Source of the DNA: an uncultured virus (IMG/VR IMGVR_UViG_3300042544_003642)
Taxonomy: Duplodnaviria > Heunggongvirae > Uroviricota > Caudoviricetes
DNA: 64,000 nt
Reading direction: 5' to 3' (one strand)
Virus record (IMG/VR): IMGVR_UViG_3300042544_003642
The notes under the pieces were generated by a model, which did not search any database, had not been told where the DNA came from, and saw nothing but the letters and a program-made list of their open reading frames with translations. Position numbers and translations under genes: made by a program. The number at the start of each line of letters is the position of its first letter. The stretch's first letter is position 1. Positions 4,072-55,189 of this stretch are shown here, in pieces.

Positions 4072-4150
4072 CATAATCCCCATGTCTTGCTATATAAGAG
4101 AATAGCCAAAAGGATAGACCTTGCGGCAGATTGAGCAAAGGATTTTTGCG

Positions 4151-5221
4151 ATGAACAAAGCTGACCTAGGAATCTTTATCGGAAGGTTTTCTCCTTACCA
4201 TTCAGGTCACCACCATGTGGTAACTGAAGCACTCAAGCACGCAGACAATTTGGTGATTTTGGTGGGCAGTGCCCGCAGTCCGCGCAGTTATCGTGTGCCG
4301 TTTACCTTTCAAGAACGGCGGGACATGATTGAAGGCAGCCTGCCTGCCGAGCTGAAAAACAGAGTGCGAGTTCTGCCTCTAGAGGACGCCACCTACAACG
4401 ACAGCAAGTGGATCCACAATGTGCAGACGCTGGCTGCCCAAGGGGCGACGCTTTTTGGGCTTGACCCAGCCAAAGCCAAGATCACACTAGTGGGCCACAG
4501 CCGAGACAACACCAGCTATTACCTGAAACTGTTTCCTCAATGGAGCAATGTGGAGGTCAGCAGCTTCCGCGACATCAGCGGTACCAACATTCGCAACAGC
4601 TACTTCAGCAACATGGGCCACATGTGGGTGAGAGATGCAGATGGCCACCAAGCAGGTGACCTGCCTCAGGATGCAGTGGTGACACCCTATGTGCAGAAGT
4701 TTCTCAGCAGTTTCCTTGATACTCCCAACCACAAGCTGATCCGTGACGAGTATGAGTTTGTGCTGAAGTACAAAAGCAGTTGGGCGGCTGCGCCTTACCC
4801 TGTGAATCTAGTGTGCGTAGACGCTGTGGTGATCAAAAGCGGACATGTGCTAATGGTGGAACGTGGAGCAATGCCAGGGAAAGGCCAGCTTGCACTTCCT
4901 GGTGGATACCTAGATGTAACTGAGCGAGTAGTTGACGGGATGATCCGTGAGCTGCGTGAGGAAACTCGGTTGAAAGTCCCAGCTCCGGTGCTTAAAGGCA
5001 GCATTGTCAAGAAGGAAGTTTTTGACGATCCTAATCGCAGCAGCCGAGGTCGAGTGCTCACAGTAGCTTATCTCATTGATCTTGGCACAGGTCCACTTGA
5101 CACAGTCAAGGGCGGAGATGATGCGGCCTCAGCCAAATGGGTAGCCCTTAAAGATCTTCGGCCAGAAATCTGTTTTGAGGACCACTATCATTTAATCTCT
5201 GTACTAGTCGGGGCAATTTAG
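4151..5221 (+). CDS. nadM: bifunctional NMN adenylyltransferase / Nudix ADP-ribose pyrophosphatase (NadM-Nudix)
   Basis: GRFSPYHSGH, SGTNIR, Nudix box GG...RELREET. Confidence 0.92.
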   Translation: MNKADLGIFIGRFSPYHSGHHHVVTEALKHADNLVILVGSARSPRSYRVPFTFQERRDMIEGSLPAELKNRVRVLPLEDATYNDSKWIHNVQTLAAQGATLFGLDPAKAKITLVGHSRDNTSYYLKLFPQWSNVEVSSFRDISGTNIRNSYFSNMGHMWVRDADGHQAGDLPQDAVVTPYVQKFLSSFLDTPNHKLIRDEYEFVLKYKSSWAAAPYPVNLVCVDAVVIKSGHVLMVERGAMPGKGQLALPGGYLDVTERVVDGMIRELREETRLKVPAPVLKGSIVKKEVFDDPNRSSRGRVLTVAYLIDLGTGPLDTVKGGDDAASAKWVALKDLRPEICFEDHYHLISVLVGAI

Positions 5222-5533
5222 GAAAAAGGTAATGATGACGCGCATCAAGATTGAAACTTGCACCACCATCAGTAATGTGGACCCCAGCAGTCTCGAGCAG
5301 TTGAAACAAACTCTCCGTATCTCACAGAAGCAGGGGTTGATTAGGCCCACAGGTGATCCCAGTATTGATGCGCCCATCACGGAACAAGAAAATGACAAAG
5401 AAAACAAAAAAGAAGATCCCAACAATTGAAGCCGCTCTAGCGGAATGTTTGGTGCAACAGGCTGGCGAGCTGTGGCAACCTGCTGAGCCAAGCCTGTTGG
5501 AACAACTGCTCCGTTACCGCGAAAGGACAGACA

Positions 5534-5854
5534 GTGAGTGACACTCCCCAGTTCACAGAAGTTGATCTCAGCAAAACCACACGGCATGGCAGTGATGAGC
5601 TAACAGTGGGACCAACCTATATCTGCTTGATTCACGGCAGCTATTTCATAGGCACATTCGGCAAGGTATGGTTTGGCTTGAACTTCAATGGTTGGCATGG
5701 CTGCGGCTTGCAATACGATCCACCGGGCACTAACTCTAGCCGTTGGCAGCGGGTGTGGCGGTTTGACAATGCAGAACTCATCAAACAAACTGAATCAGTT
5801 GTTGATGCATTGTTGAAAGGCACACCTAATGGGACACTACGACGAACAACGTGA
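5534..5854 (+). CDS. hypothetical protein
   Basis: ORF with SD in an operon-like arrangement. Confidence 0.5.
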   Translation: MSDTPQFTEVDLSKTTRHGSDELTVGPTYICLIHGSYFIGTFGKVWFGLNFNGWHGCGLQYDPPGTNSSRWQRVWRFDNAELIKQTESVVDALLKGTPNGTLRRTT

Positions 5855-6056
5855 TTTTGACGACTATCAGCAAAGTCTACGGCGAGATAAACAGTTGATT
5901 GAAGATGTGAAAAGTGGCAAATTTGGGGTGCTCTTGCATGCTGCTGACATTGCCAACAGCAATACAGTGATGGTGAACTGTGGCACATTTGCACGCATGA
6001 TCAGCATCATCTCACGACTTGACCCGAAAACCTACACATACCCCTGGGAACGATAA
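5829..6056 (+). CDS. hypothetical protein
   Basis: Overlapping operon ORF. Confidence 0.5.
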   Translation: MGHYDEQRDFDDYQQSLRRDKQLIEDVKSGKFGVLLHAADIANSNTVMVNCGTFARMISIISRLDPKTYTYPWER

Positions 6057-6066
6057 GGAAATTTCA

Positions 6067-6624
6067 ATGGTTATGACTGCACGAGCCTACCGGCATTTAC
6101 GCGATCTCATCTCGGAAAAAAGTTTGATTCAAGATCAAAACTTCACTCTCAGCAGTGGAGCAGCCAGCAACTACTTCTTCAACATGAAGATCTCCATGTT
6201 GGATCCCATGGGCAGCAATCTCATTGCTGATGCTATGCTGGATATTCTCGATACATTGGATTTTGACAGCGTAGGAGGGATGGCTGTGGGCAGCGTTCCG
6301 TTGGTTACCAGCATTGCCACCAAAAGCTACCTACGCAGTCGCCATTATCCAGCTTTCTTTGTGCGAAAAGAAGTGAAAGATCACGGCGTGCAAACAAAGA
6401 TTGATGGCCACTGCACTCCGGGTAGCCGAGTGGTGCTGGTGGAAGATGTGACTACTACTGGAGGCAGCATCATGCGGGCTGTTGAGGCTGTGCGGGAGAT
6501 TGGTTGCCAAGTGGACACAGTGCTCACAGTCGTTGACCGACTGGAAGGTGCGCGAGAGAATCTATCAGCAGAAAAGATTCGCTTGATCCCCCTCTACACA
6601 CGAGTTGATTTTGAGGATTCATAA
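6067..6624 (+). CDS. pyrE: orotate phosphoribosyltransferase
   Basis: FTLSSG, VRKEVKDHG, VEDVTTTGGS PRPP-binding motif. Confidence 0.92.
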   Translation: MVMTARAYRHLRDLISEKSLIQDQNFTLSSGAASNYFFNMKISMLDPMGSNLIADAMLDILDTLDFDSVGGMAVGSVPLVTSIATKSYLRSRHYPAFFVRKEVKDHGVQTKIDGHCTPGSRVVLVEDVTTTGGSIMRAVEAVREIGCQVDTVLTVVDRLEGARENLSAEKIRLIPLYTRVDFEDS

Positions 6625-6627
6625 ATT

Positions 6628-7359
6628 ATGATTATAATTCCTGACTCTCCCATTGCAGTTACACATCTAAAAAGGCCTATTATTCTCCCAGGAACTCCTT
6701 TACCAGATTATGTGGTGGAGAAAATACTCGCAAGTGAACAAGTTATTGACGATGATGACTCCTCCTTTGAAACAATGTTTTCTGGGGCAAAACCAATTGA
6801 TTCGTCCGGCTTTACTGGGGCAGTGACTCAGTGGGTTGAAGGAGAACTTGGAAGTTTAGGGTATCCTATAAATCACAGCAGAGGGATTGACGTACCGCCC
6901 TACAGTATCGAGATCAGAACTCGCAGAAAACACGCTACAGCTCCACAAACTTTTGGGTCTCTCAAACTATCAGATATAATTCAAAACTCATGGCTTACAT
7001 CTGATATCAAAACAAAGTGTCAACTCCACTATCAAGTGATGTGGGATGCGCAACACATGGTTGTTTGTGACGATCAAATCGTGGATTTCCGACATCCTTG
7101 GAGACAAGAGGCGTTACAAAAAGCTTTTGATAATGCTAGGGATGAGCTGATTGCATACTATTCTAGGCCCAATATTACAGTGCCTTTGAAATTCACTTCG
7201 ACTGCTGGCGGAATTTATCTTGAAAGAACTTCAAGGAAGAACAGCAAAAAAAGCTGGTTCTCAGCATTTTACCAGTTTCGAGTACGAAACAATTTGATGG
7301 AAAAATGGCATATAGCGGGCAGGAAAAACTCATACGATGAGCTGTTTTCAAAAATTTAA
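6628..7359 (+). CDS. possible PD-(D/E)xK nuclease-like protein
   Basis: VEGEL...GID...IEIRTR spacing resembles restriction-nuclease cores. Confidence 0.35.
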   Translation: MIIIPDSPIAVTHLKRPIILPGTPLPDYVVEKILASEQVIDDDDSSFETMFSGAKPIDSSGFTGAVTQWVEGELGSLGYPINHSRGIDVPPYSIEIRTRRKHATAPQTFGSLKLSDIIQNSWLTSDIKTKCQLHYQVMWDAQHMVVCDDQIVDFRHPWRQEALQKAFDNARDELIAYYSRPNITVPLKFTSTAGGIYLERTSRKNSKKSWFSAFYQFRVRNNLMEKWHIAGRKNSYDELFSKI

Positions 7360-7449
7360 AAGTTGACGTAATTGGGCATCTAGCCTATAAATATGACACA
7401 GGAAAAGGATAGACCTTTTCCTTCACATACTGAACAAGGGAGACTTGTT

Positions 7450-8859
7450 ATGTTCAATTACGATAGCGTCATTCTTGACGTCGACAGCTACAAATTCAGC
7501 CATCCGTGGCAACTTCCCCCAAACACCACACACATTCACAGCTACGTAGAAAGTCGCGGCGGACGCTTCCCTCGCACACTGTTTTACGGGCTCCAAATGT
7601 GGCTCAAGCGTCGGCTGGTGACTCCAGTGACCATGAGCGACGTGGACGAGGCTGCTGGATTGGCAGCCGCACACATGGTGCCTTTCCATCGGGAAGGCTG
7701 GGAATACATTGTGCGTGAGCACCAGGGCCGGTTGCCAGTAGAGATTCGAGCAGTGCCCGAAGGCATGGTGATCCCCACTCACAACGTGCTAGCCACTGTG
7801 GTGAACACCGATCCCAATGTGCCCTGGCTCACTAGCTTCCTAGAGACAGCTCTACTCCGTGCTGTTTGGTACCCCACCACAGTGGCCACACTCAGCTGGC
7901 ATGCCAAGCAGACCATTCGAGCTGCACTGGGGAAGAGCAGCGACAACCCCGAAGGCGAGCTTCTGTTTCGACTGCACGACTTTGGCGCTCGTGGCGTCAG
8001 CAGCGATGAAAGCGCTCAGCTGGGTGGCAGTGCTCACCTAGTGAACTTCCGAGGCACCGACACTGTTGCAGCCCTCCTTGCAGCCCGACGCTACTACACC
8101 GAGGCCATGGCAGGGTTTAGCATTCCGGCAGCAGAGCACAGCACCATCACCAGTTGGGGTCGCGATGGCGAAGCTGAGGCCTATGGCAACATGCTCAAGC
8201 AGTTTGCCCGGCCAGGCAGCATCCTTGCAGTGGTGAGCGACAGCTACGACATCATGAACGCGGTCAACCACATCTGGGGCGAAACACTGCGAGACCGTGT
8301 GCTAGACAGTGGGGCCACCCTTGTGATTCGTCCCGACAGCGGTGATCCAGTTGTGGTGCCAGTTGATGTGGTTGAGGCACTTGGTGAGCGGTTTGGCTAC
8401 ACCGTCAACAGCAAGGGCTACAAGGTGCTGAACAAGAGTGTGCGTGTGATCCAGGGCGATGGCATGAACATTGACAGCATCAAAACCCTGTATGACAACC
8501 TCACAGCACGCGGCTGGAGTGCAGAAAACGTGGCTGTGGGCATGGGCGGCCAACTCTTGCAAGGTATTACTCGCGACACCAATCGATTTGCGATGAAAGC
8601 TTCAGCTGCCTGTATTGATGGGGAATGGCGCGAGGTATATAAGGATCCTATTACAGACAAAGGAAAAACATCCAAGAAAGGTAAAGTTACCCTTTGGCAG
8701 TCAGGTAACCAATTTCAAACAAGCGTTAACACTCCTCTACGCGGTCTTGAGAATGGTGTGGTGTGGACCGACGTTCTGCAGACAGTCTACCGGAATGGAC
8801 GCCTTCTCATTGATCAATCATTCCAGGACATTAGAGATCGATCTGAGAAAGTCTTTTAA
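7450..8859 (+). CDS. nadV: nicotinamide phosphoribosyltransferase (NAMPT)
   Basis: DSYKFSH, LHDFGARG, SIPAAEHS, VVSDSYD, IRPDSGDP. Confidence 0.95.
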   Translation: MFNYDSVILDVDSYKFSHPWQLPPNTTHIHSYVESRGGRFPRTLFYGLQMWLKRRLVTPVTMSDVDEAAGLAAAHMVPFHREGWEYIVREHQGRLPVEIRAVPEGMVIPTHNVLATVVNTDPNVPWLTSFLETALLRAVWYPTTVATLSWHAKQTIRAALGKSSDNPEGELLFRLHDFGARGVSSDESAQLGGSAHLVNFRGTDTVAALLAARRYYTEAMAGFSIPAAEHSTITSWGRDGEAEAYGNMLKQFARPGSILAVVSDSYDIMNAVNHIWGETLRDRVLDSGATLVIRPDSGDPVVVPVDVVEALGERFGYTVNSKGYKVLNKSVRVIQGDGMNIDSIKTLYDNLTARGWSAENVAVGMGGQLLQGITRDTNRFAMKASAACIDGEWREVYKDPITDKGKTSKKGKVTLWQSGNQFQTSVNTPLRGLENGVVWTDVLQTVYRNGRLLIDQSFQDIRDRSEKVF

Positions 8860-10350: not shown

Positions 10351-10878
10351 ATGAGCGATTTAAAAACACTTACTTGGGCAAATCACAAGCTTGCCGAAAG
10401 TACTCCTTTGATGGCTGCTATGCTTTCTGGAGATATAACACCTGAATGCTACTCTGATCTAGTGTACAGCAAACACTTGTTGTATTCTGTTATTGAAAGC
10501 AGACTTGCTTTTGAGTGTGCTGACTTGCCTCGAGCAGGCTGTGCGTTCCAGGACTGGAAAGAGATGGGGTCCCACAGTCCCACTTTACCTGCCAGTTTTT
10601 TTGAATTTCACGAGAGACTGGAAACTGTGTCTGAAAGCCAATTGTGGGCGCATGTGTATGTGCACTACCTTGCCCCGCTCTATGGTGGTCAAATCTTGAA
10701 GAAGATTTTGAGCCCTCGTTTTCCGGTAAACATGCTGAGTTTTGAAACACCCAAAGCAGCTATTGCTGAGATTCGCTACAAAACACATGCTGGTTTGGCT
10801 GAAGAGGCCAATCTCAGCTTTGAGATGACAACAAGGTACTATGACGAACTTCATCAATCTCATCAACCAAACGGCTGA
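10351..10878 (+). CDS. heme oxygenase
   Basis: LKTLTWANHKLAE, AHVYVHYLAPLYGGQIL. Confidence 0.85.
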   Translation: MSDLKTLTWANHKLAESTPLMAAMLSGDITPECYSDLVYSKHLLYSVIESRLAFECADLPRAGCAFQDWKEMGSHSPTLPASFFEFHERLETVSESQLWAHVYVHYLAPLYGGQILKKILSPRFPVNMLSFETPKAAIAEIRYKTHAGLAEEANLSFEMTTRYYDELHQSHQPNG

Positions 10879-11467
10879 TAAATTTGAGCAGCTGATCCAA
10901 AACAACACCACTCTCTTGACGGAGATACCAACAGAGGATTTTGGTTGGACCAATAACCGATGGTATAGCCAACAGTTTCGGCTTGCTCATGTGGAAAGAT
11001 TTCAGCAACCAAAATTCAGTGTGTTGCACACTGTGATCTTTCCTCACCTGACTGATCCCAGCCCTATTTTTGGGTTTGATATCATTGCCAGTGACACCAA
11101 GGCCACAGGTTTGTTTTTTGATTTCAGTCCCACTGTTGAAAGTTATGGAATCATATCTAGTCATCTATGGAGTGAGCCACGTGAAAGACCTGAATGGGGA
11201 ACAATTTTCAGCGAGCATTGGATCGCTTGCAGACCCACATATACGGAAGCTGAAACCATCAGCACATTGGCATGCACACTGTTGGAACAATATCTATCTC
11301 AGTTGGGAACAAAAACCACAACAGATGTACCTATGGTCATAAAGAAGCAAAATCAATACAGTTTGAACCAAAGACAAAACACTCATACTACTAGAGTTCT
11401 CATGAAGATACTGGGAGAAGAGCGTGGCCAGTATTTTGTGGAAAATATTTTATTCCCAACCATATGA
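10841..11467 (+). CDS. ferredoxin-dependent bilin reductase (PcyA/PcyX family)
   Basis: LHTVIFP...PIFGFD...DFSP, RPEWGTIFS, QRQNTHT, LFP; adjacent to heme oxygenase. Confidence 0.85.
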   Translation: MTNFINLINQTADKFEQLIQNNTTLLTEIPTEDFGWTNNRWYSQQFRLAHVERFQQPKFSVLHTVIFPHLTDPSPIFGFDIIASDTKATGLFFDFSPTVESYGIISSHLWSEPRERPEWGTIFSEHWIACRPTYTEAETISTLACTLLEQYLSQLGTKTTTDVPMVIKKQNQYSLNQRQNTHTTRVLMKILGEERGQYFVENILFPTI

Positions 11468-11523
11468 AGAATTGACACACCCTATACTTGTAGTATCTTT
11501 CAGACTGAAGCATGGAGTAGAGT

Positions 11524-12933
11524 ATGACACCCGCTACAACGACAGCCAAAACTATTGAAAAATCCAGTGATATGGATGCAACCAAACTGTATCTCAAGCA
11601 GGTTGCCAAAAACAAGTTGCTTACACATCAGCAGGAAATTCAATTTAGTCAACAAATTGAAAACAGCAAGAAAAACCTGCTCTTGAATCTGTTCTCTATT
11701 CCTATGGCAGTATGGCAGTTTGATACCAAGATTCAAGGTGTAGTAAAAGGGGAAATTGACAGCCACAGCATTTTTGACATTGAAGAAACAGAACTAGCCC
11801 CTCTGCTCACAAATCTAGCAAACATTCAACAGGATATTATGCTGTTAAGCACCAGCCCCAATAGTGAACTCTGTCAACGAGTGGCTGAAACCTGTTCTTC
11901 GCTGAGTTTCAAACTCAGCTTTTACGACAGCATGGTTCAGCCCTTCAACGACATGGTGAAAGACATTATTAGCGCACAAGGAGCTTACCTGCGCTTTGCA
12001 CAAAGCAAAGGAGTCTCTCGTGAGTTGTTCCTAGCCGCATACCAAAGCATGTCACAAGACAAAAATTGGCTGCGGTTCAAAACAGTTCACCAAGCCGAAG
12101 TGGAAAAGCATGAGTCGCAACTAGCAAGTTTTGTTGCCAACACGGGTATGCCACTTGACACACTCCTTGAAAAATGCCGCCAGATTCGGCAAGAGCAAAA
12201 AAACAAGGACGAGGCAGTGGAGATTATGCTCAAGAGCAATCTTCGACTCGTGGTGAGTGTGGCAAAGAAATACACCAACATCAGTCAAACTCCCATTCTT
12301 GATCTCATTCAAGAAGGCAACATTGGTCTCTTGAAAGCTATTGAGAAGTTTGATTGGAAGATGGGATTTCGTTTCAGCACCTACGCCACTTGGTGGATCA
12401 AGCAGTGTGTGCTGAAAGCCTTGAATGAGCATCATCGTATCATTCGTATCCCAGCTCACATGAGCGACCTTGCCAAGAAGGTAACGCGAGCACGAGCTGA
12501 GTTTGTAAATCACAATGGTTTTGAGCCCAGTGTGCAAGAAATTGCAGAGATGCTGGAAATTGATGTGGAAAACGTAGACAAAGTCTACAGTGTTGCGCAG
12601 GGCACAATCTCTCTGGAAACGCCAATTGGCGGTGAAGAAGATCAAACCATTGCACATCTTATTGAAGACACTGAAGGGGTGAATGCGTTTAACCTCTTGG
12701 CTGAGGCTGACAGCGCATATGCAGTGTCAGAGGTCTTGAAACATCTCAGTCCCAAGGAAGAGCGTGTGATCAGGATGCGCTTTGGTATTGGTGTAAACGA
12801 ACAAAGCACACTGGAAGACATTGGCAACAAATTTGGTGTCACTCGTGAGCGTGTGCGCCAGATTGAAAGCAAAGCACTGGAAAAGCTCAAGAGTACGGAA
12901 CTAGCTCAGAAGCTGCAAGAAGCTTTTACCTAA
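11524..12933 (+). CDS. RpoD-like sigma70 factor
   Basis: NLRLVVSVAKKY, DLIQEGNIGL, FSTYATWWI, IRIPAHM, TRERVRQIE. Confidence 0.93.
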   Translation: MTPATTTAKTIEKSSDMDATKLYLKQVAKNKLLTHQQEIQFSQQIENSKKNLLLNLFSIPMAVWQFDTKIQGVVKGEIDSHSIFDIEETELAPLLTNLANIQQDIMLLSTSPNSELCQRVAETCSSLSFKLSFYDSMVQPFNDMVKDIISAQGAYLRFAQSKGVSRELFLAAYQSMSQDKNWLRFKTVHQAEVEKHESQLASFVANTGMPLDTLLEKCRQIRQEQKNKDEAVEIMLKSNLRLVVSVAKKYTNISQTPILDLIQEGNIGLLKAIEKFDWKMGFRFSTYATWWIKQCVLKALNEHHRIIRIPAHMSDLAKKVTRARAEFVNHNGFEPSVQEIAEMLEIDVENVDKVYSVAQGTISLETPIGGEEDQTIAHLIEDTEGVNAFNLLAEADSAYAVSEVLKHLSPKEERVIRMRFGIGVNEQSTLEDIGNKFGVTRERVRQIESKALEKLKSTELAQKLQEAFT

Positions 12934-25192: not shown

Positions 25193-25267
25193 GGGGCATG
25201 GGCAAGGTACCCGGAGGATCTTTGCAAGATCCTAGCCTGATCGGCGCGATACCGATATGCTCCACCA
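25193..25267 (+). tRNA. tRNA-Ala(TGC) second copy, atypical T-loop
   Basis: ggatc-ttTGCaa-gatcc; G3:U70; T-loop CGCGATA. Confidence 0.8.
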
Positions 25268-25272
25268 ATTGT

Positions 25273-25346
25273 AGGTCGCTGGTGAATTAGTATCACGTTG
25301 AGCTCCAACCTCAAAGTGCCGGGGGCGGTACCTGGGTGGCCTGCCA
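25273..25346 (+). tRNA. tRNA-Trp(CCA), U11-A24, atypical T-loop
   Basis: ttgag-ctCCAac-ctcaa; G73; CCA. Confidence 0.82.
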
Positions 25347-25366: not shown

Positions 25367-25475
25367 TTGCCATCGAGGTTGGAACAGCCTCCCAACACAC
25401 CATGAGAATGGTAACTAGCCGGCAGCAATCACCTAGCTGGTGAAGAAATCCGGAAGTGGCATCCGGCGATGGCGA
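25367..25475 (+). ncRNA. tRNA-like RNA lacking a 7-nt anticodon loop
   Basis: gccatcg/cgatggc acceptor, ccgga-7-tccgg T-arm, accat-GAGA-atggt. Confidence 0.45.
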
Positions 25476-29349: not shown

Positions 29350-29401
29350 CCTGCATGGATCATTTGCAGCTAGCAAGATGCTGCTATATACTATGTACTG
29401 T

Positions 29402-29564
29402 GCCGGATTAGCTCATTTGGTAGAGCAATTGATTTTTCCGTGGCGGGATAATGCCACCAACTGGTGAATAAATTTACCAGTTGTTTGTGGGCAACACTGG
29501 CCTAAAGCCAGTACGCCAAATGGTAATCAATAGGTGGTCAGTTCGAAACTGACATCCGGCACCA
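29402..29564 (+). tRNA. tRNA-Thr (GGT, or TGT depending on junction) with 87-nt anticodon-loop insert
   Basis: Canonical 76-nt cloverleaf after removing 29435-29521. Confidence 0.85.
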
Positions 29565-30525: not shown

Positions 30526-30599
30526 GCAGGTATGGTGTAATAGGAACTCAGTGCGTTGCCAACGCACAGTCGCCGGAGCGTTACCGGCTACCTGCTCCA
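30526..30599 (+). tRNA. tRNA-Gly(GCC)
   Basis: gtgcg-ttGCCaa-cgcac; U73; CCA. Confidence 0.85.
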
Positions 30600-31740: not shown

Positions 31741-31814
31741 CGTCCTGTAGCTCAACTGAATAGAGCATTTGAATCCTAGTCAAAAGGTTGCGAGTTTGAA
31801 TCTCGCCAGGACGT
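31741..31814 (+). tRNA. tRNA-Arg(CCT)
   Basis: tttga-atCCTag-tcaaa; no encoded CCA. Confidence 0.75.
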
Positions 31815-32658: not shown

Positions 32659-33264
32659 TTACCATCTTGCATTATCCTCAAATCCAGCATCTTCTAGTTC
32701 TTTTTGACAATCAAACATGGCACGTTTGCCTTGTCCTGCGTATTTGTTCAAGATTGTTTCAACAGTCGTGTGATTCATTGCTGACCGCAACGAGATACTT
32801 TTGGCTGCCAAACAACGGAGCAGTGGAAGAGTAGGCGTGTAAGGTATAGCCAAGTAATTGAGCTCTGAAGGCATACCTTGGAGTGAGGTTAATGGGTTGA
32901 GGTGACAACTAAAAAGATCACCAACACTGCTGGGAGCACCTTCCAGTGAAGTCAGTTGGTTGTTGAAGCATACGAAACTTCCAACCACATTCTTGGGTGC
33001 AGCTTTAAGTGAAATAAGTTGGTTACTTGAGCCTAAGAAACTTCCACCAACACTCTCTGGCGCCCCGTCCAGTGTGGTTAGTTGGTTGTAATCGCACTGG
33101 AAGTGTCCAAGAACACTCTTGAAACGCACAGGGAACTGGGGTAATTGTCTTTTAAGTATAACATTACCCTGGCAAGTGATCAACCCCTCAGGATCTATTG
33201 TGACTTGGCCTGTTGTTTTGAAATTAGCTTTCAACAAAGCCATTACTTCTTTTTTGTCTACCAT
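32659..33264 (-). CDS. LRR-like array protein 9
   Basis: LRR-like units and conserved ...DAGFEDNARW C-terminus. Confidence 0.85.
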   Translation of the reverse strand: MVDKKEVMALLKANFKTTGQVTIDPEGLITCQGNVILKRQLPQFPVRFKSVLGHFQCDYNQLTTLDGAPESVGGSFLGSSNQLISLKAAPKNVVGSFVCFNNQLTSLEGAPSSVGDLFSCHLNPLTSLQGMPSELNYLAIPYTPTLPLLRCLAAKSISLRSAMNHTTVETILNKYAGQGKRAMFDCQKELEDAGFEDNARW

Positions 33265-34010
33265 CTTGCATTCCCTTCAAATCCAGCATCTTCCAGTTCT
33301 TTTTGGCAGTCAAACATGGCACGTTTGCCTTGACCCATATACTTTTGCAGAATAGCCCGCACCTCGTGTGGCCATCCCATACCCGACCACAGTTTTTTAG
33401 CATTTAAACAACGCAAGAGCGGCAGAGTGGGGCTGTAGTCAATCCATAAAACCCTTACTTCAGTAGGCATTCCTTCAAGTGACTCTAGCTGATTACCCCA
33501 TGCTCTCAACTCGCCAGTGATGGTTTTTGGTGCACCGTGTAGTGAGACTAGTTTGTTTTCCATGCAAAACAAATCATGCACTTTCTCAGGAACATGTTCC
33601 AGTGATGAGAGTTGATTTGTCATACAAGAGAAATTGGCACCAACTGATTTGGGACAGTGTTCAAGGCTTTCTATGTTGTTATTATCGCATTTGAAATCTC
33701 CGCCCACATGTTGAGGCGAACCCAACAAACTGGTGAGTTGGTTGTGGCCACACTTGAAATCTCTACCTACCCAAGAGGGTGCGCCTTCTAGACTCACCAG
33801 ATCGGTATGCTGTACAGCAAAATCGTAGCGTATTTTTCCAAACCTTACCCGCAAGGTTTTTATACCTGGCTTACCATCAAGGTAAGATTTCTCCTTGCTC
33901 TTGACACTGCCTGTGCAGGATATCAATCCTGTGTTGGGATCAACAGAGAGTTTACCTGTGTGAGAGTAATATTTGTCAAAAGTTTTTTTGATCCCGGCTA
34001 GATCTACCAT
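33258..34010 (-). CDS. LRR-like array protein 8
   Basis: Same family; 7-nt overlap with neighbours. Confidence 0.85.
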   Translation of the reverse strand: MVDLAGIKKTFDKYYSHTGKLSVDPNTGLISCTGSVKSKEKSYLDGKPGIKTLRVRFGKIRYDFAVQHTDLVSLEGAPSWVGRDFKCGHNQLTSLLGSPQHVGGDFKCDNNNIESLEHCPKSVGANFSCMTNQLSSLEHVPEKVHDLFCMENKLVSLHGAPKTITGELRAWGNQLESLEGMPTEVRVLWIDYSPTLPLLRCLNAKKLWSGMGWPHEVRAILQKYMGQGKRAMFDCQKELEDAGFEGNARW

Positions 34011-34621
34011 CGTGCATTTCCTTCAAATCCAGAGTCTTCCAAATCTTTTTGGCAGTCAAACATGGCAGCTTTGCCTTGACCTGCATATTTGTTCATGATT
34101 TCTTGAACCTTCTGGGGTGGCTCCGATTCATCAACCCTATGCATGAATACAATTTTTTTGGCAACCAATGCACGTAGCAAAGGCAAAGTGGGCGAATATT
34201 GTAACACTAGTCGCCCTAAACCTTCTTGCGGTATGCCTTCAAGACTTTCAAGTGGATTGCCCACACAACTCAAAGATCCAAGAACTTTTTTGGGTGCACC
34301 TTGCAAGCTCTTGAGCTGGTTGAACCCACATAAGTAGTGTTCGCCAACAGCATCAGGACCGCCTTCAAGAGTTTGTAAATTGTTCTCAGTACAACGAAAT
34401 TCATTGTAGACATATTTGGGAGATCCTTGAAGGCTTGTGAGCCCCATGCCCCCCACATCAAATCCTTCCACTTCATAAAAGCCAACTGGCAACTTCTTAA
34501 CATGCAACATAAGCGTTACGTAACCTTTTGTGCTTATTGTTCCATCAGAATTGATTACAATGCTTTCATTACATTGAAAATAATCATCAAAAGTTTTTTT
34601 GATGTTATCAACGTCTACCAT
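34004..34621 (-). CDS. LRR-like array protein 7
   Basis: Same family. Confidence 0.85.
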   Translation of the reverse strand: MVDVDNIKKTFDDYFQCNESIVINSDGTISTKGYVTLMLHVKKLPVGFYEVEGFDVGGMGLTSLQGSPKYVYNEFRCTENNLQTLEGGPDAVGEHYLCGFNQLKSLQGAPKKVLGSLSCVGNPLESLEGIPQEGLGRLVLQYSPTLPLLRALVAKKIVFMHRVDESEPPQKVQEIMNKYAGQGKAAMFDCQKDLEDSGFEGNARW

Positions 34622-35253
34622 TTTGCATGATCCTCAAATCCAGCGTCTTCCAAATCTTTTTGGCAATCAAACATGGCACGTTTGCCTTGGCCAGCATATT
34701 TGTTCAAAATTGTCTGCACTTTTCCCTTCTCCACAGTGTGAGTGTCGTCAGCAGGCTCTAAAAATATATGCCTTGCTGCCAAGGTACGTAAGAGAGGCAA
34801 ATGTGGTAGATACGGTAACCAAGCTGCATTTTCCACTTTCAACGGAAATCCATCCAAGCTTTTCAACGGATTACCAATGCAATTGAAATTATTGGGTATC
34901 TGGACAGGTGCCCCCTTCAAATCAACAAGTTGATTATGGTCACAGTAGTAGTTCCAACCTACAATTTCTGGCCCCCCACTAAGGCTTTTGAGCATGTTAC
35001 GTGAACAGTCAAAACTCACGCCCACTTCAGGGGGACAGCCTTCCAAGGTTACTAGTGCGTTCTCATCTAACGATAGATTTTCAGTTACAGCTTTGAAGGC
35101 AACTGGCAGTTTTTCAAAACGTGTATAGTGGAGATTCAACAATTGAATATCGCCATTTACTGTTACCAGTCCATCTGATGAAACTTTTGCACTGTTGTAG
35201 TCAAAGCTGAAATGGTCTTTCAATAACTGCAAGATTTCTCGTTTGTTTACCAT
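34615..35253 (-). CDS. LRR-like array protein 6
   Basis: Same family. Confidence 0.85.
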   Translation of the reverse strand: MVNKREILQLLKDHFSFDYNSAKVSSDGLVTVNGDIQLLNLHYTRFEKLPVAFKAVTENLSLDENALVTLEGCPPEVGVSFDCSRNMLKSLSGGPEIVGWNYYCDHNQLVDLKGAPVQIPNNFNCIGNPLKSLDGFPLKVENAAWLPYLPHLPLLRTLAARHIFLEPADDTHTVEKGKVQTILNKYAGQGKRAMFDCQKDLEDAGFEDHAKW

Positions 35254-35906
35254 CTGGCGTTGTCCTCAAATCCGGCATCTTCCAATTCTTTTTGACAATC
35301 AAACATAACACGTTTTCCTTGCCCCAAATATTTTTCCAAAATGTATAACACCTTCCAGGCATCGCTGCCCTCGCTTTGATACGGCCAAAAAATAATCTCT
35401 GGTGCCACCAATGTGCGCAACAAAGGCAGCTGAGTATCATAAGTGATATACAAACTATCTCCAATTTTTTGAGGAAAGCCCTGCAAGCTCTCTAGAGGAT
35501 TGGCTGAACAATTGAACACACTGGGGATTTCTCTAGGTGCCCCTTCCAAATCCTTCAATTGATTTTTACTGCAATTATAACTGCCGCCAAATGTGGGTGT
35601 TTGTGTCGTGCCTATTGTTTTGGGTCCAAACTTCAAACTTTTGAGTTCATTATTGTCACACTCAAAATTCTTACCAACAGTTTCTGGACAACCCTCTAGT
35701 GTCTTGAGTTGGTTGATGCTGAGCATCATACTGCCTTCAATGTGAGAAAATTTCACCGGTAGTTCTTGAAAAGAACTGTGAAATTTGTTGTATAACACAA
35801 CGTCTCCCATGACACTGACTTTGCCAGCTGGATCAACAATGGGGTCCCCATCTACCATGAAATGTTGAGTTAGCGTGTTCAACACATGCTGTTTGACGTC
35901 TACCAT
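35247..35906 (-). CDS. LRR-like array protein 5
   Basis: Same family. Confidence 0.85.
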   Translation of the reverse strand: MVDVKQHVLNTLTQHFMVDGDPIVDPAGKVSVMGDVVLYNKFHSSFQELPVKFSHIEGSMMLSINQLKTLEGCPETVGKNFECDNNELKSLKFGPKTIGTTQTPTFGGSYNCSKNQLKDLEGAPREIPSVFNCSANPLESLQGFPQKIGDSLYITYDTQLPLLRTLVAPEIIFWPYQSEGSDAWKVLYILEKYLGQGKRVMFDCQKELEDAGFEDNARW

Positions 35907-36505
35907 CTTGCATTTCCTTCAAAGCCCGCATCTTCCAGTTCTTTTTGGCAATCAAACAGGGCACGTTTGCCTTGTCCTGCGTATTTGTAAAATATTCCTT
36001 CAATTGTTAGAAGTTTGCTTTGCATAACATTGTGGGCATACAGCATTAGGCCCTGTTGGCAGTTCAAAGCTCGAAGCAAGGGCAATTTATTGTGATAATT
36101 TATGCTCAAGTGTTGGCCTACTCGTTGGGGAAACCCAGCAAGACTCAACACTGGAACCTCTTGTCTAAATCCCACACGACCTGAAACCTCAAGGGGCCCA
36201 CCTGTCATGTCTTTCAAAGGATTTTTGTTGGCAGTGAATCTGCCTCCCACAATCTGCGGACAACCTTCAAGACTGGAGAGTCCACATCTGTCTAAAATCA
36301 AACTGGCATGGCAAACGCCAAATTTTACAGGCAGTTTTCCATTGGGAAACGGTCCTTGTATGGCCAAGAGCACACCATATCCTGGTGTGATCTCCTGCAC
36401 ATTTACTATACCACTATCTTCAATTTGAAAGCGCACCCGGTTGTCTGCCTCACCATTACGAAAATAAGTGTTCAACATGTGCTGAACTTCTTGTTTGTCT
36501 ACCAT
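35900..36505 (-). CDS. LRR-like array protein 4
   Basis: Same family. Confidence 0.85.
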   Translation of the reverse strand: MVDKQEVQHMLNTYFRNGEADNRVRFQIEDSGIVNVQEITPGYGVLLAIQGPFPNGKLPVKFGVCHASLILDRCGLSSLEGCPQIVGGRFTANKNPLKDMTGGPLEVSGRVGFRQEVPVLSLAGFPQRVGQHLSINYHNKLPLLRALNCQQGLMLYAHNVMQSKLLTIEGIFYKYAGQGKRALFDCQKELEDAGFEGNARW

Positions 36506-37098
36506 CTTGCATTTCCTTCAAATCCAGCATCCTCTAGATCTTTTTGACATTCAAACAGGGCACGCTTGCCCTGTCCTTTGTATTTTTCAATTATTTCTTC
36601 AATGGGATTAGTGTTAAAGGATGATGAGCTCAATATTACACCATCTTGGCAAGCTAACGTGCGCAGCAGCGGCAACTTGTCATGGTAAGGCAGTTTAGCA
36701 TAGTCACCCACCCTATCAGGAAAACCATCCAAACTCTCTAATAGGTTTTTCTGCATCCCAAGCCAAAACCTACCTGTGACTTCTTTGGGCCCACCCTTGA
36801 AATTTTTCAATTGATTGCCAAGTGCAACAAAATTGCCTTGGATTACAGGGGGACAACCAACCAAGTCCACGATTTGATTCCGGTCCAATTTTAAGCTGGC
36901 TTTGAACAAGCCAAATCTCACAGGCAACTGACCTCCAGGGAAGGGTTTGTCCTTAATAGTGCGGAGATGGCCGCGACCAGGAGTCAGCTCAAGCACATTA
37001 ACCAAGCCCTCAGGACCTATGTCAAATTTCACAGCGTCATTTGGCTCAAAGAAAAAATACTCTGCCAACAGTTCCAAAATTTCCCTTTTGTCTACCAT
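36499..37098 (-). CDS. LRR-like array protein 3
   Basis: Same family. Confidence 0.85.
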   Translation of the reverse strand: MVDKREILELLAEYFFFEPNDAVKFDIGPEGLVNVLELTPGRGHLRTIKDKPFPGGQLPVRFGLFKASLKLDRNQIVDLVGCPPVIQGNFVALGNQLKNFKGGPKEVTGRFWLGMQKNLLESLDGFPDRVGDYAKLPYHDKLPLLRTLACQDGVILSSSSFNTNPIEEIIEKYKGQGKRALFECQKDLEDAGFEGNARW

Positions 37099-37913
37099 TT
37101 GGCGTTCCTTTCAAATCCTGCGTCTTCCAATTCTTTTTGACAGTCAAACAGGGCTCGTTTGCCCTGGCCTGCGTATTTTTTCAAGATGGTTTCCACTTGA
37201 ATATACTTGCCCCACAGCACAGGCCAAAAATTGACCTTCTGGGCTACCAAAAGCCGTAACAAGGGCAAATCGGATTTGTAACTGACTTCAATCAAATCAG
37301 GAGTTTGGGAGCCTAACCCCTCAAGATTTTCCAAGGGATTGTGATCAAAAATAAACTGCTTGGAAATATTCAAAGAGGCACCTTTGAGTGTTGTGAGCTT
37401 GTTGTTGGTTGCCCAAAAATATTCCACGGTCTGTGGTGCGTCTTGAAGATCAGTCAAGAGATTTTTACTGACATCAAACATACCACCTATTTGCAGGGGA
37501 GCACCTCGCAAACTCACTAAATTGTTGTTGTATGCAATGTATTCTTGTGTAAAGTCTCGTGGACTTCCCAACAAATCTGAGAGTTTATTATTCTGGCAAG
37601 AATATTGTCCTTTTACTGTTTTTGGGCCACCAACCAAGCTGATCAACTGGTTTTCACTGCAATCAAATGTGTCCAAGACAGTGTGAGGACAGCCTTCAAG
37701 TGTTTCCAACTTGTTCCTGTGACAGAGAAAATTGCCTTCCACCACTCCAAATCTCACAGGCAATCGAGAGGTCTCTTTGCTCAACAAAATTGATCCATGA
37801 GCATCTACAACACCTGTATCATGTATAGTGAAAAGGGTACTTTCCCAACCAAAGTATTCATTCAGTAACTGACGAACAGTTGTTTTGTCTTGTGGGAATT
37901 CCTGGTTTACCAT
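37092..37913 (-). CDS. LRR-like array protein 2
   Basis: Same family, more repeats. Confidence 0.85.
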   Translation of the reverse strand: MVNQEFPQDKTTVRQLLNEYFGWESTLFTIHDTGVVDAHGSILLSKETSRLPVRFGVVEGNFLCHRNKLETLEGCPHTVLDTFDCSENQLISLVGGPKTVKGQYSCQNNKLSDLLGSPRDFTQEYIAYNNNLVSLRGAPLQIGGMFDVSKNLLTDLQDAPQTVEYFWATNNKLTTLKGASLNISKQFIFDHNPLENLEGLGSQTPDLIEVSYKSDLPLLRLLVAQKVNFWPVLWGKYIQVETILKKYAGQGKRALFDCQKELEDAGFERNAKW

Positions 37914-38563
37914 CGTGCATTTTCCTCAAAACCCGCATCTTCCAATTCTTTTTGGCAGTCAAACAAAGCACGTTTGCCTTTGCCTGCATAACTGTTCAAA
38001 ATTTTATGTAACTGCTGGAATTTTCCTTCGTTTCCTCGCTTATATTGCATAGGCACAATAAGGTCCACATGCAAGGCTCCTAATGTTCTCAACAGTGGTA
38101 TTGTGGGACTATACGTCAATGTTACCCAAGCAATGCTCTTGGGCAAGTGGTCAAGTGACTCCAGTGGGTTGTCTTGAATCTCCAGATTGTCAGATACTGT
38201 GTCCGGCAAACCTTGTAGAGAAGTCAACTTGTTGCTATTGAGAAGGATACTGCCACTGACCCAATGCGGAAAACTGGTTAACTTTGATAGCAAGTTGAAG
38301 CTGGCGTCGAAATCTCCTTCAATCTCAAATGGGCATCCTTCCAAGGTTCTTAGATTCTTGTTGTTGCAGGTGAAGGTACCATGCACCTTACTGAAACGCA
38401 AAGGTAACTGAGATTGAGGCCGCGTTAGGTGTAAGTCACCAGCCACAACAATCTTACCATCTTGATCAAACATCCAACCAGCTGGATATAAGGCATTGCT
38501 CTCTATCTTGAAGTTCTGGCTCAAGATGGTTTTGGTTTGTTCATATTCCACATCACTTACCAT
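37907..38563 (-). CDS. LRR-like array protein 1
   Basis: Same family. Confidence 0.85.
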   Translation of the reverse strand: MVSDVEYEQTKTILSQNFKIESNALYPAGWMFDQDGKIVVAGDLHLTRPQSQLPLRFSKVHGTFTCNNKNLRTLEGCPFEIEGDFDASFNLLSKLTSFPHWVSGSILLNSNKLTSLQGLPDTVSDNLEIQDNPLESLDHLPKSIAWVTLTYSPTIPLLRTLGALHVDLIVPMQYKRGNEGKFQQLHKILNSYAGKGKRALFDCQKELEDAGFEENARW

Positions 38564-40250: not shown

Positions 40251-40336
40251 GCGGCGTTAGCTCAGGGGTTAGAGCACAAGTCTTCCAAACTTGAGGCGAA
40301 TAGGTTCCATCGGTTCGAATCCGATACGCCGCTCCA
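40251..40336 (+). tRNA. tRNA-Gly(TCC) with enlarged variable region
   Basis: caagt-ctTCCaa-acttg; 15-nt variable region; TCCA end. Confidence 0.85.
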
Positions 40337-40466: not shown

Positions 40467-40590
40467 GGATCCGTGGTCTAATTGGATAAGGCAAGAGCCT
40501 TCCGGTCCCGCAGGTAGCATTCAAGGTTCGAATCCTTGGGGACCGCTCCTAAGCTCTTCGATGGGGGTTCGAATCCCTCCGGGTCCGCCA
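40467..40590 (+). tRNA. tRNA-Arg(CCT) with 47-nt anticodon-loop insert
   Basis: Canonical 77-nt cloverleaf after removing 40501-40547. Confidence 0.85.
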
Positions 40591-47534: not shown

Positions 47535-47608
47535 GGCCCCATAAGACAAAGGTAGTCAGCTGGACTCTAAATCCAGTGGTGTGAGTTCAAATCTCACTGG
47601 TGCCACCA
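47535..47608 (+). tRNA. amber suppressor tRNA (CTA anticodon)
   Basis: gctgga-ctCTAaa-tccagt; TTCAAAT T-loop; CCA; own promoter upstream. Confidence 0.85.
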
Positions 47609-54697: not shown

Positions 54698-55189
54698 ATG
54701 ACCAAGATAGTGTTTTTAGACTTTGACGGCGTGTTATTACCTGATCCTGATGCTAGAGAGCAAGCAGAGCAGGGACTGACTACCAATAACTATCTCTCTA
54801 AAGTTGTATTCAATCCCAGTTGTGTGAAAAATTTGAATGCCTTGCTCAAGGCAACTCATGCTGAAATAGTTCTCAGCACAAGTTGGGCTGAGGGACACAG
54901 TGTTAGTGAAGTCAGCAATTGTCTCATGCGCAATGGTATTGATCCTTCCTGTATATTTGAATACGATGATCCCAGTGAAGGCAATTACATGACTCCTAGA
55001 CAGCAAGGGTCAAATCGGGGTCAAGAAGTTTTGAACTGGATTGCTGATCATCCTGAGATTGACACTTGGGTAGCAATAGATGACAACCCAGCCATCTTGT
55101 ATTTGAAAACCAATTATGTGAGAACACATCCTGATCATGGTTTTGACAAAGCCAGCTTAGCAAAAGCCTTGAGCATTTTGAACAAATAA
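54698..55189 (+). CDS. HAD-family phosphatase (Swiss-Army-knife RNA-repair-like)
   Basis: FLDFDGVL, IVLSTSW, RGQEV..W, AIDD. Confidence 0.78.
   Translation: MTKIVFLDFDGVLLPDPDAREQAEQGLTTNNYLSKVVFNPSCVKNLNALLKATHAEIVLSTSWAEGHSVSEVSNCLMRNGIDPSCIFEYDDPSEGNYMTPRQQGSNRGQEVLNWIADHPEIDTWVAIDDNPAILYLKTNYVRTHPDHGFDKASLAKALSILNK

Follow-up and report, generated by a model that had tools for sequence, protein, structure and literature searches.

The anticodon loop of a tRNA-Thr gene in a jumbo phage is interrupted by an 87-nt folded insert that recurs, at the same site and with the same fold, in tRNA-Thr genes of other phages, and this insert points to an unexplained form of tRNA splicing in bacterial viruses. 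The gene lies in the window, by which we mean the whole 64-kb stretch of DNA analysed here, itself part of a 119-kb virus record. With introns allowed and at its default threshold, ARAGORN calls a tRNA-Thr at 29402-29564, i(34,87). Both exons of the gene are intact, and the insert between them is folded and conserved (Table 1). The ARAGORN call bears out the exons, the CCA end and the 87-nt length given in an earlier note on this DNA, which had removed 29435-29521; the junction chosen there is likely one base off. The three hairpins that the note had described are present in the insert, and the tttg/caaa closure of the third arm holds in the form of a 3-bp helix. The insert has a folding energy of -35.9 kcal/mol (z = -4.1 to -4.6), which none of 200 shuffles equals, and it is not an assembly error, because the identical sequence is shared with 3 other IMG/VR contigs and the locus is bridged by contigs from two lake runs (X19, X20) that are not flagged as its sources. 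No insert-free allele in the contigs of 4 DNA runs could be assigned to the window's phage; the joints across the insert in these runs have 26-nt sides or different stems and are probably those of other organisms. Promoter-like sites in the region number 4, against 2.6 +/- 1.5 expected.

Table 1. Coordinates of the interrupted tRNA genes, of the parts of the Thr insert, of its homologs and of a candidate repair enzyme (positions are those of the window unless a contig is named)
Feature	Position	Strand	Remarks
Sigma-70-like promoter candidate	29363..29392	+	upstream of gene; 9/12 matches, not above chance
5' exon of tRNA-Thr	29402..29435	+	5' strands of acceptor and anticodon stem, D arm, 32-34 (34/35 junction)
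Insert, 87 nt	29436..29522	+	preferred boundaries; 33/34 alternative 29435-29521
Leader, 4 nt	29436..29439	+	TCC invariant in 5/5 members
P1 hairpin	29440..29457	+	near-invariant; D-loop-like GG(A)UAA in loop
P2 hairpin	29458..29483	+	sequence and length variable
P3 arm	29484..29520	+	3-bp closing helix 29484-29486/29518-29520, 3-nt bulge, ~12 bp
P3 cap	29500-29508	+	invariant GCCUAAAGC; loop end of upper P3 helix
3' exon of tRNA-Thr	29523..29564	+	G35-U36-A37-A38 to CCA: 3' strands of anticodon stem and acceptor, variable loop, T arm, A73
Interrupted tRNA-Arg	40467..40590	+	47-nt mini-tRNA insert, 40503-40549 if 35/36
HAD phosphatase, Swiss-Army-Knife RNA repair type	54698..55189	+	PF18143, E 1.9e-27
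Insert version L226	contigs G002/G003		also metagenome locus L215
Insert version L229	contig G006		
Insert version L233	contig G008		
Insert version L235	contigs G009/G010/G052		
Insert version L230	contig G007		divergent 73-nt insert, ends similar

The phage itself comes from sequencing runs of lake water. A near-identical contig of 310 kb (G001, ~76% complete) extends the view of its genome, and by sequence comparison it is a Rak2/Atu_ph07-like jumbo phage, an assignment made because its T4-like portal protein is closest to those of PA5oct-like phages (50%) and then Atu_ph07 (48%). A search for relatives with the sigma factor matched only the same phage.

As judged from its homologs, the insert is an RNA family with a new structure, so far Thr-specific, and the family is undescribed as such; in a literature search covering few subscription papers, neither the three-arm fold nor the way in which phage tRNA introns are removed is described. 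Pattern scans of phage contigs yielded five distinct versions at the same tRNA-Thr site, the window's included, which are 60-75% identical, and a divergent sixth, with lengths of 73-87 nt across the family. Conservation of position and fold in relatives had been set beforehand as a test of the earlier note's reading, and both proved to be conserved in the tRNA-Thr genes of other phages, with compensatory changes. Two-sided changes occur in 15 of 32 pairs among five members (the 32 include 5 anticodon-stem pairs), and 93% of cells are paired, where shuffles reach 80% and slid controls 31-38%. The contrast with the slid controls is inflated because the structure was derived from the same five sequences, a small sample for covariation. 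Every insert arm contributes: P1 is paired in 30/30 cells with 1 two-sided change, P2 has two-sided changes in 5/8 pairs at an identity of 33-71%, the P3 closing helix is paired in 14/15 cells with 1 two-sided change, and the upper P3 helix shows such changes in 5/10 pairs. The unpaired motifs TCC, GGUAA, a UG bulge and CUAAA are invariant, and 2 free bases follow the P3 arm in the consensus. Removing the insert from each of the six members gives a tRNA that default ARAGORN accepts, with U33, G35-U36-A37-A38 and CCA.

The yield of the searches varied. In the first pattern scan, 5 of 10 loci were members, the remainder being 1 nested tRNA and 4 tandem tRNAs; further scans gave 5/56, 10/22 and, counting divergent L230, 8/10 member loci, a metagenome scan 1/15 and a prokaryote genome scan 0/1. 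A structure-model search with the insert, which the earlier note had proposed, was run with model R1 over 28 sources and matched only these Thr loci. The same model found no new member in 41 + 48 + 30 further viral records and 5 cultured jumbo phages (124 in total), and it should be regarded as narrow because divergent L230 was also missed. When cultured phages were searched by BLAST with the window locus and with the inserts of two homologs, only exon or chance matches came up.

Additional structure within the insert can be considered. The GGG of L1 is able to pair with the CCU of L3 in 5/5 members, and this loop-loop pairing is compatible with the data rather than proven because it does not vary among the five. 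A 6-bp alternative helix, 29437-29442/29486-29491, fits all five members and is longer than in 300/300 structure-preserving shuffles; it shows no two-sided change, and in the ensemble of the window's own insert its probability is close to zero. Resemblances to the HDV, twister and pistol ribozymes were considered, as were an 11-nt tetraloop receptor and an internal BHB, and all were dropped as not conserved or lacking Rfam support.

Where the insert would be excised can be narrowed by comparison. All eight anticodon-loop sites were scored across the 6 members, and only the 33/34 and 34/35 junctions give U33 together with a Thr anticodon in every one. In the window, both removals leave a valid tRNA, 29435-29521 giving GGU and 29436-29522 giving UGU. 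Across the 6 members, the 34/35 junction yields UGU, UGU, AGU, AGU, AGU and UGU, and the 33/34 junction yields GGU, CGU, GGU, AGU, GGU and GGU. If the RNA is spliced, the junction quite probably falls at 34/35, which is preferred because of synteny with an insert-free relative and because of the spacing from loop to junction described below. Contig G006 is collinear with the insert-free G056 and G055 (G056 segments are 80-99% identical); the insert-free order is Val(UAC), Thr(UGU), Thr(AGU), and that of G006 is Val(UAC), Thr(UGU) and an interrupted Thr with A after U33. The match between G006 and G056 is one of slot orthology rather than strict orthology because tRNA bodies differ between phages. 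The window's spliced product would then be tRNA-Thr(UGU). The intact tRNA-Thr genes of G055 and G056 that stand beside Thr(UGU) (L271, L272) carry an AGU anticodon that is rare.

A second type of insert, shaped like a mini-tRNA, occurs together with the Thr type both in the window and in G006. The window's tRNA-Arg insert has a 7-bp acceptor-like stem, a GGUA loop and a perfect T arm; excising it at either 34/35 or 35/36 would leave Arg(UCU), which complements Arg(CCU) at 31741. In G006, a tRNA-Lys(UUU) (L257:3299-3424) holds a 50-nt mini-tRNA insert, and because G056 has the empty site, the insertion site can only be 34/35. Over all loci studied, ARAGORN made 91 distinct interrupted calls, 30 of which passed a tRNA-frame filter: by our reading, 6 belong to the Thr family, 12 have an inner T arm and 12, which were set aside, are tandem-gene artefacts or unclear. 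In 9 of the 12 inner-T-arm inserts, a junction compatible with the tRNA body is possible 16 nt past the inner T-loop, and in 3 it falls 14-15 nt past it; the set is selected because many were found with the T-loop pattern. Sixteen nucleotides past the T-loop is the position of a tRNA 3' end, and several of these inserts end in CCA. The isotype of the G006 Lys gene was taken from its empty site and that of a Lys gene of cultured phage Atu_ph07 from a homologous intact gene in phage Phosso; the other isotypes were judged by eye from identity elements. When CCUAAAG of the Thr insert is read as a T-loop, the 34/35 junction lies at 16 nt in 4/5 Thr members and at 15 in the window.

Mini-tRNA inserts extend to other phages. 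For example, contig G005 (L207, 22000-42000) has at least 5 tRNAs with tRNA-like inserts, mostly ending in CCA and at differing loop positions. Atu_ph07, examined over ~113 kb of its 490 kb, carries two unannotated interrupted tRNAs with mini-tRNA inserts, Lys(UUU) (L279, MF403008 ~68.2 kb) and Asn(GUU) (L287, ~323.9 kb), as well as a Met-like gene with a 35-nt hairpin (L289:30106-30214, ~335.1 kb); model R1 did not find the Thr family in that ~113 kb. As in the window's Arg insert, the 3' junction of these mini-tRNA inserts falls about 16 nt past a T-loop. The available text of the Atu_ph07 paper reports tRNAs for all amino acids save Asn and Thr and does not contain the word intron (PMC6102473), and the interrupted tRNA-Asn fills a gap in this published set. 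The idea that Atu_ph07 is without an intact tRNA-Thr was dropped, as ARAGORN at a relaxed threshold finds one. In phage Phosso, a tRNA-like gene has a long insert in the anticodon region (L291:1781-1951).

These comparisons suggest a mechanism that we find plausible, though we would stop just short of calling it probable: the insert would be a tRNA intron whose tRNA-mimic fold is read by protein nucleases and whose removal is completed by Pnkp/Rnl1 sealing. Lying between positions 34 and 35 of a precursor for tRNA-Thr(UGU), it may mimic the tRNA elbow, with P1 presenting a D-loop-like GGUAA and P3 a T-loop-like G-CCUAAAG-C. The 3' junction would lie 15-16 nt past the latter loop, where the 3' end of a tRNA would be. 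Both junctions could then be cut by host tRNA end-processing enzymes or by an unrecognised phage nuclease, and the halves could be healed and sealed by the phage's Pnkp-like and Rnl1 enzymes, by analogy with T4 tRNA repair. A speculative benefit is that the mature anticodon loop would appear only under phage control. The proposed T-loop is without the UUC of real T-loops, and no acceptor-like stem joins the two ends of the insert, so that an RNase P cut at the 5' junction is not obvious. A broader version can also be entertained more tentatively, in which jumbo phages would splice tRNAs independently of group I/II introns and EndA, the intron would mimic a tRNA and perhaps be part ribozyme, and Pnkp/Rnl1 would close the break; mimicry would be canonical in the mini-tRNA inserts and rearranged into a three-arm fold in the Thr family.

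Enzymes suited to the sealing step are present. In T4, Pnkp and Rnl1 rejoin tRNA cut at the anticodon (PMC3400036). G001 encodes Rnl1 (E 7e-26), a second RNA ligase, RlaP, a kinase/metallophosphoesterase and Thg1, and Rnl1 occurs in 4/5 cultured relatives; the HAD phosphatase of the window is a possible end-healing partner. The earlier note had asked after a ligase and an endonuclease, and of these the ligases are there; RtcB was not found in the ~76% complete G001, and EndA (PF01974), the tRNA splicing endonuclease, was found in 0/5 records, which are incomplete, with positive controls in 4 archaea. As jumbo phages often encode such ligases (PMC7824862), those of G001 would allow sealing but do not count as specific evidence for it.

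The alternative that survives best is that the unspliced RNA works as it is, as a tRNA-shaped decoy or scaffold with a four-way junction in place of the anticodon loop, which might soak up or resist a host anticodon nuclease or bind threonyl-tRNA synthetase. The strongly conserved structure with no identifiable excision signal would suit such a role, as would the intact Thr(UGU) that G006, G007 and G008 carry beside the interrupted gene, the variation of both insert-flanking bases and the status of Thr(UGU) as a known defence target, that of P2-OLD (PMC12445682). A decoy accounts poorly, however, for the exact retention of U33 and G35-U36-A37-A38, for the 7-nt loop that is restored in 6/6 members and for the base after U33, which matches the wobble base of the insert-free orthologue, and we consider it unlikely.

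A new small ribozyme, which would cut itself at one or both ends before Pnkp/Rnl1 sealing or would self-splice, is distinctly unlikely. Its attractions are the invariant unpaired motifs, the three abutting arms and the alternative helix that fits 5/5 members, as a two-state RNA might have. Against these stand the failure of any Rfam ribozyme or intron model to match at E up to 10, junction bases that are not conserved and the presence of unrelated mini-tRNA inserts at the same kind of site, which suggests shared external machinery.

More improbable still is a selfish or passenger element that has inactivated the tRNA gene and is propagated by homing with nearby HNH endonucleases. Insert-free relatives do exist, and HNH genes occur close by in some members: in G002-type contigs the distance downstream is 20 nt, in G008 it is ~325 nt, and G009 also has one near the gene. 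None, however, is near the window's gene, neither a target duplication nor a terminal inverted repeat is present, no record searched holds a free-standing or second copy, and the exons have kept compensatory pairing and CCA while the inserts diverged by 25-40%. Splicing elsewhere in the loop is very improbable: 33/34 (Thr GGU) would give common bacterial anticodons in 5/6 members but disagrees, for G006, with the Thr(AGU) found in synteny and reduces the spacing to 14-15, and 35/36 (Lys UUU, with group I-like ends and perhaps a helper intron in trans) has a terminal G in 6/6, a preceding U in 5/6 and the 16-nt spacing in the window, but would equip Thr bodies with an Asn(AUU) or Ile(AAU) anticodon in 3/6, the G being Thr G35.

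The wider gene content of the phage can be set beside these readings. Default ARAGORN makes 18 tRNA calls in the window, to which allowing introns adds 2 (Thr and Arg). No further Thr gene was found in G000 or the remainder of G001, which is weak evidence of need because the confident calls are also without Asp, His, Tyr and Ile(GAU) tRNAs; the intact Thr(UGU) of G006, G007 and G008 likewise counts against assuming a need for the predicted spliced product. Other RNA features include a skipping-rope RNA (RF02924, 44.5 bits) directly after tRNA-Trp at 25368-25474, tRNA-Ala, -Trp and -Gly with aberrant T-loops that require a relaxed threshold (25193-25346, 30526-30599), an amber (CUA) suppressor-type tRNA (47535-47608) and a tRNA-Gly(UCC) whose variable arm is unusually long (40251-40336). 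Nine tandem ORFs of ~200-270 aa with overlapping ends and no Pfam match occupy 32659-38563 on the minus strand, and the many joints among them in contigs suggest a recombining paralog array. The window also encodes a heme oxygenase and bilin reductase, a sigma-70 factor and an NAD salvage cluster (NadM/NUDIX, NAMPT) at 10351-12933 and 4121-8859, and in one G001 protein (L202:15942-18158) DUF6267 and a nucleotidyltransferase-like domain are joined to an Acb1 anti-CBASS domain.

Set against known systems, the insert follows the rules of neither group I nor group II introns nor of BHB introns, as the earlier note had held. Group II introns start with GUGYG, end with AY and contain a domain V; none of the 6 members has GUGYG ends, an AY end occurs in 2/6 and at 33/34 only, and no Rfam model matched. 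Group I introns share the anticodon-loop location, and the cyanobacterial Leu(UAA) intron likewise lies at 34/35 (Williams 2020, the source of the group I criteria). The insert differs in being far too short and without a catalytic core (at E up to 10, RF00028 matched neither the window locus nor any of five homolog loci), and U(-1) and the terminal G are not jointly conserved at the Thr junction: both occur in 2/6 members at 34/35 and in 5/6 at 35/36, but there with non-Thr anticodons, and a terminal G occurs in 0/6 at 33/34. The archaeal and eukaryotic BHB introns processed by EndA/TSEN (PMC3400036) are likewise short and, as is probable here, cut and ligated by proteins, whereas the insert, in a bacterial virus in which EndA was not found, has no BHB joining its junctions: of the 4 helix pairs that would separate two junction-bearing 3-nt bulges, the 6 members have 0-1 at 34/35, 0-3 at 33/34 and 1-3 at 35/36, and although a helix and bulge flank the 3' junction, the partner bulge lies inside the insert. 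No Rfam family model of small self-cleaving ribozymes matched, and the marks of mobile elements (target duplication, terminal repeats, multiple copies) are absent from the insert. T4 repair by Pnkp and Rnl1 uses enzyme families that G001 also encodes and that could seal anticodon-loop breaks (PMC3400036, PMC7824862), but it reseals a single nuclease nick, and the insert would need two programmed cuts and the loss of 87 nt.

The closest precedent lies in the Lak megaphages, whose short tRNA introns have been called 'enigmatic' (Devoto et al. 2019, PMC6784885, Table S6) and have left intron removal from phage tRNAs an open question since 2019; the claim of a new class of small phage tRNA intron must be tempered accordingly. 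What is gained is a covarying RNA family, exact predicted junctions and a spacing rule that links it to the mini-tRNA inserts, and Atu_ph07, a cultured phage with interrupted tRNAs, offers a direct test system for splicing. If the splicing reading is true, the bacterial domain would have an added tRNA splicing route, Rnl1/Pnkp would gain a constitutive job beyond repair, and jumbo-phage tRNA sets would be under-annotated. As far as the available text describes them, Lak introns are ~80-115 nt long, interrupt the anticodon loops of jumbo-phage tRNAs, Thr(UGU) among them, are present or absent among relatives and occur in a genome with a T4-type RNA ligase (PMC6784885). The Thr insert is likewise a short anticodon-loop insert between intact exons of a jumbo-phage tRNA, with insert-free alleles in G056 and G055 against homolog G006. 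Lak introns differ, in that text, in being AT-rich, in having a canonical T arm and in being without the Thr-family motifs; the Thr family has no canonical T-loop (a degenerate candidate loop only), a three-arm fold, invariant motifs of its own and the 34/35 site, and none of its members comes from Lak records. The window's own Arg insert does have the inner canonical T arm, and the best explanation of the Thr insert is that it belongs with these unexplained short anticodon-loop introns of jumbo phages.
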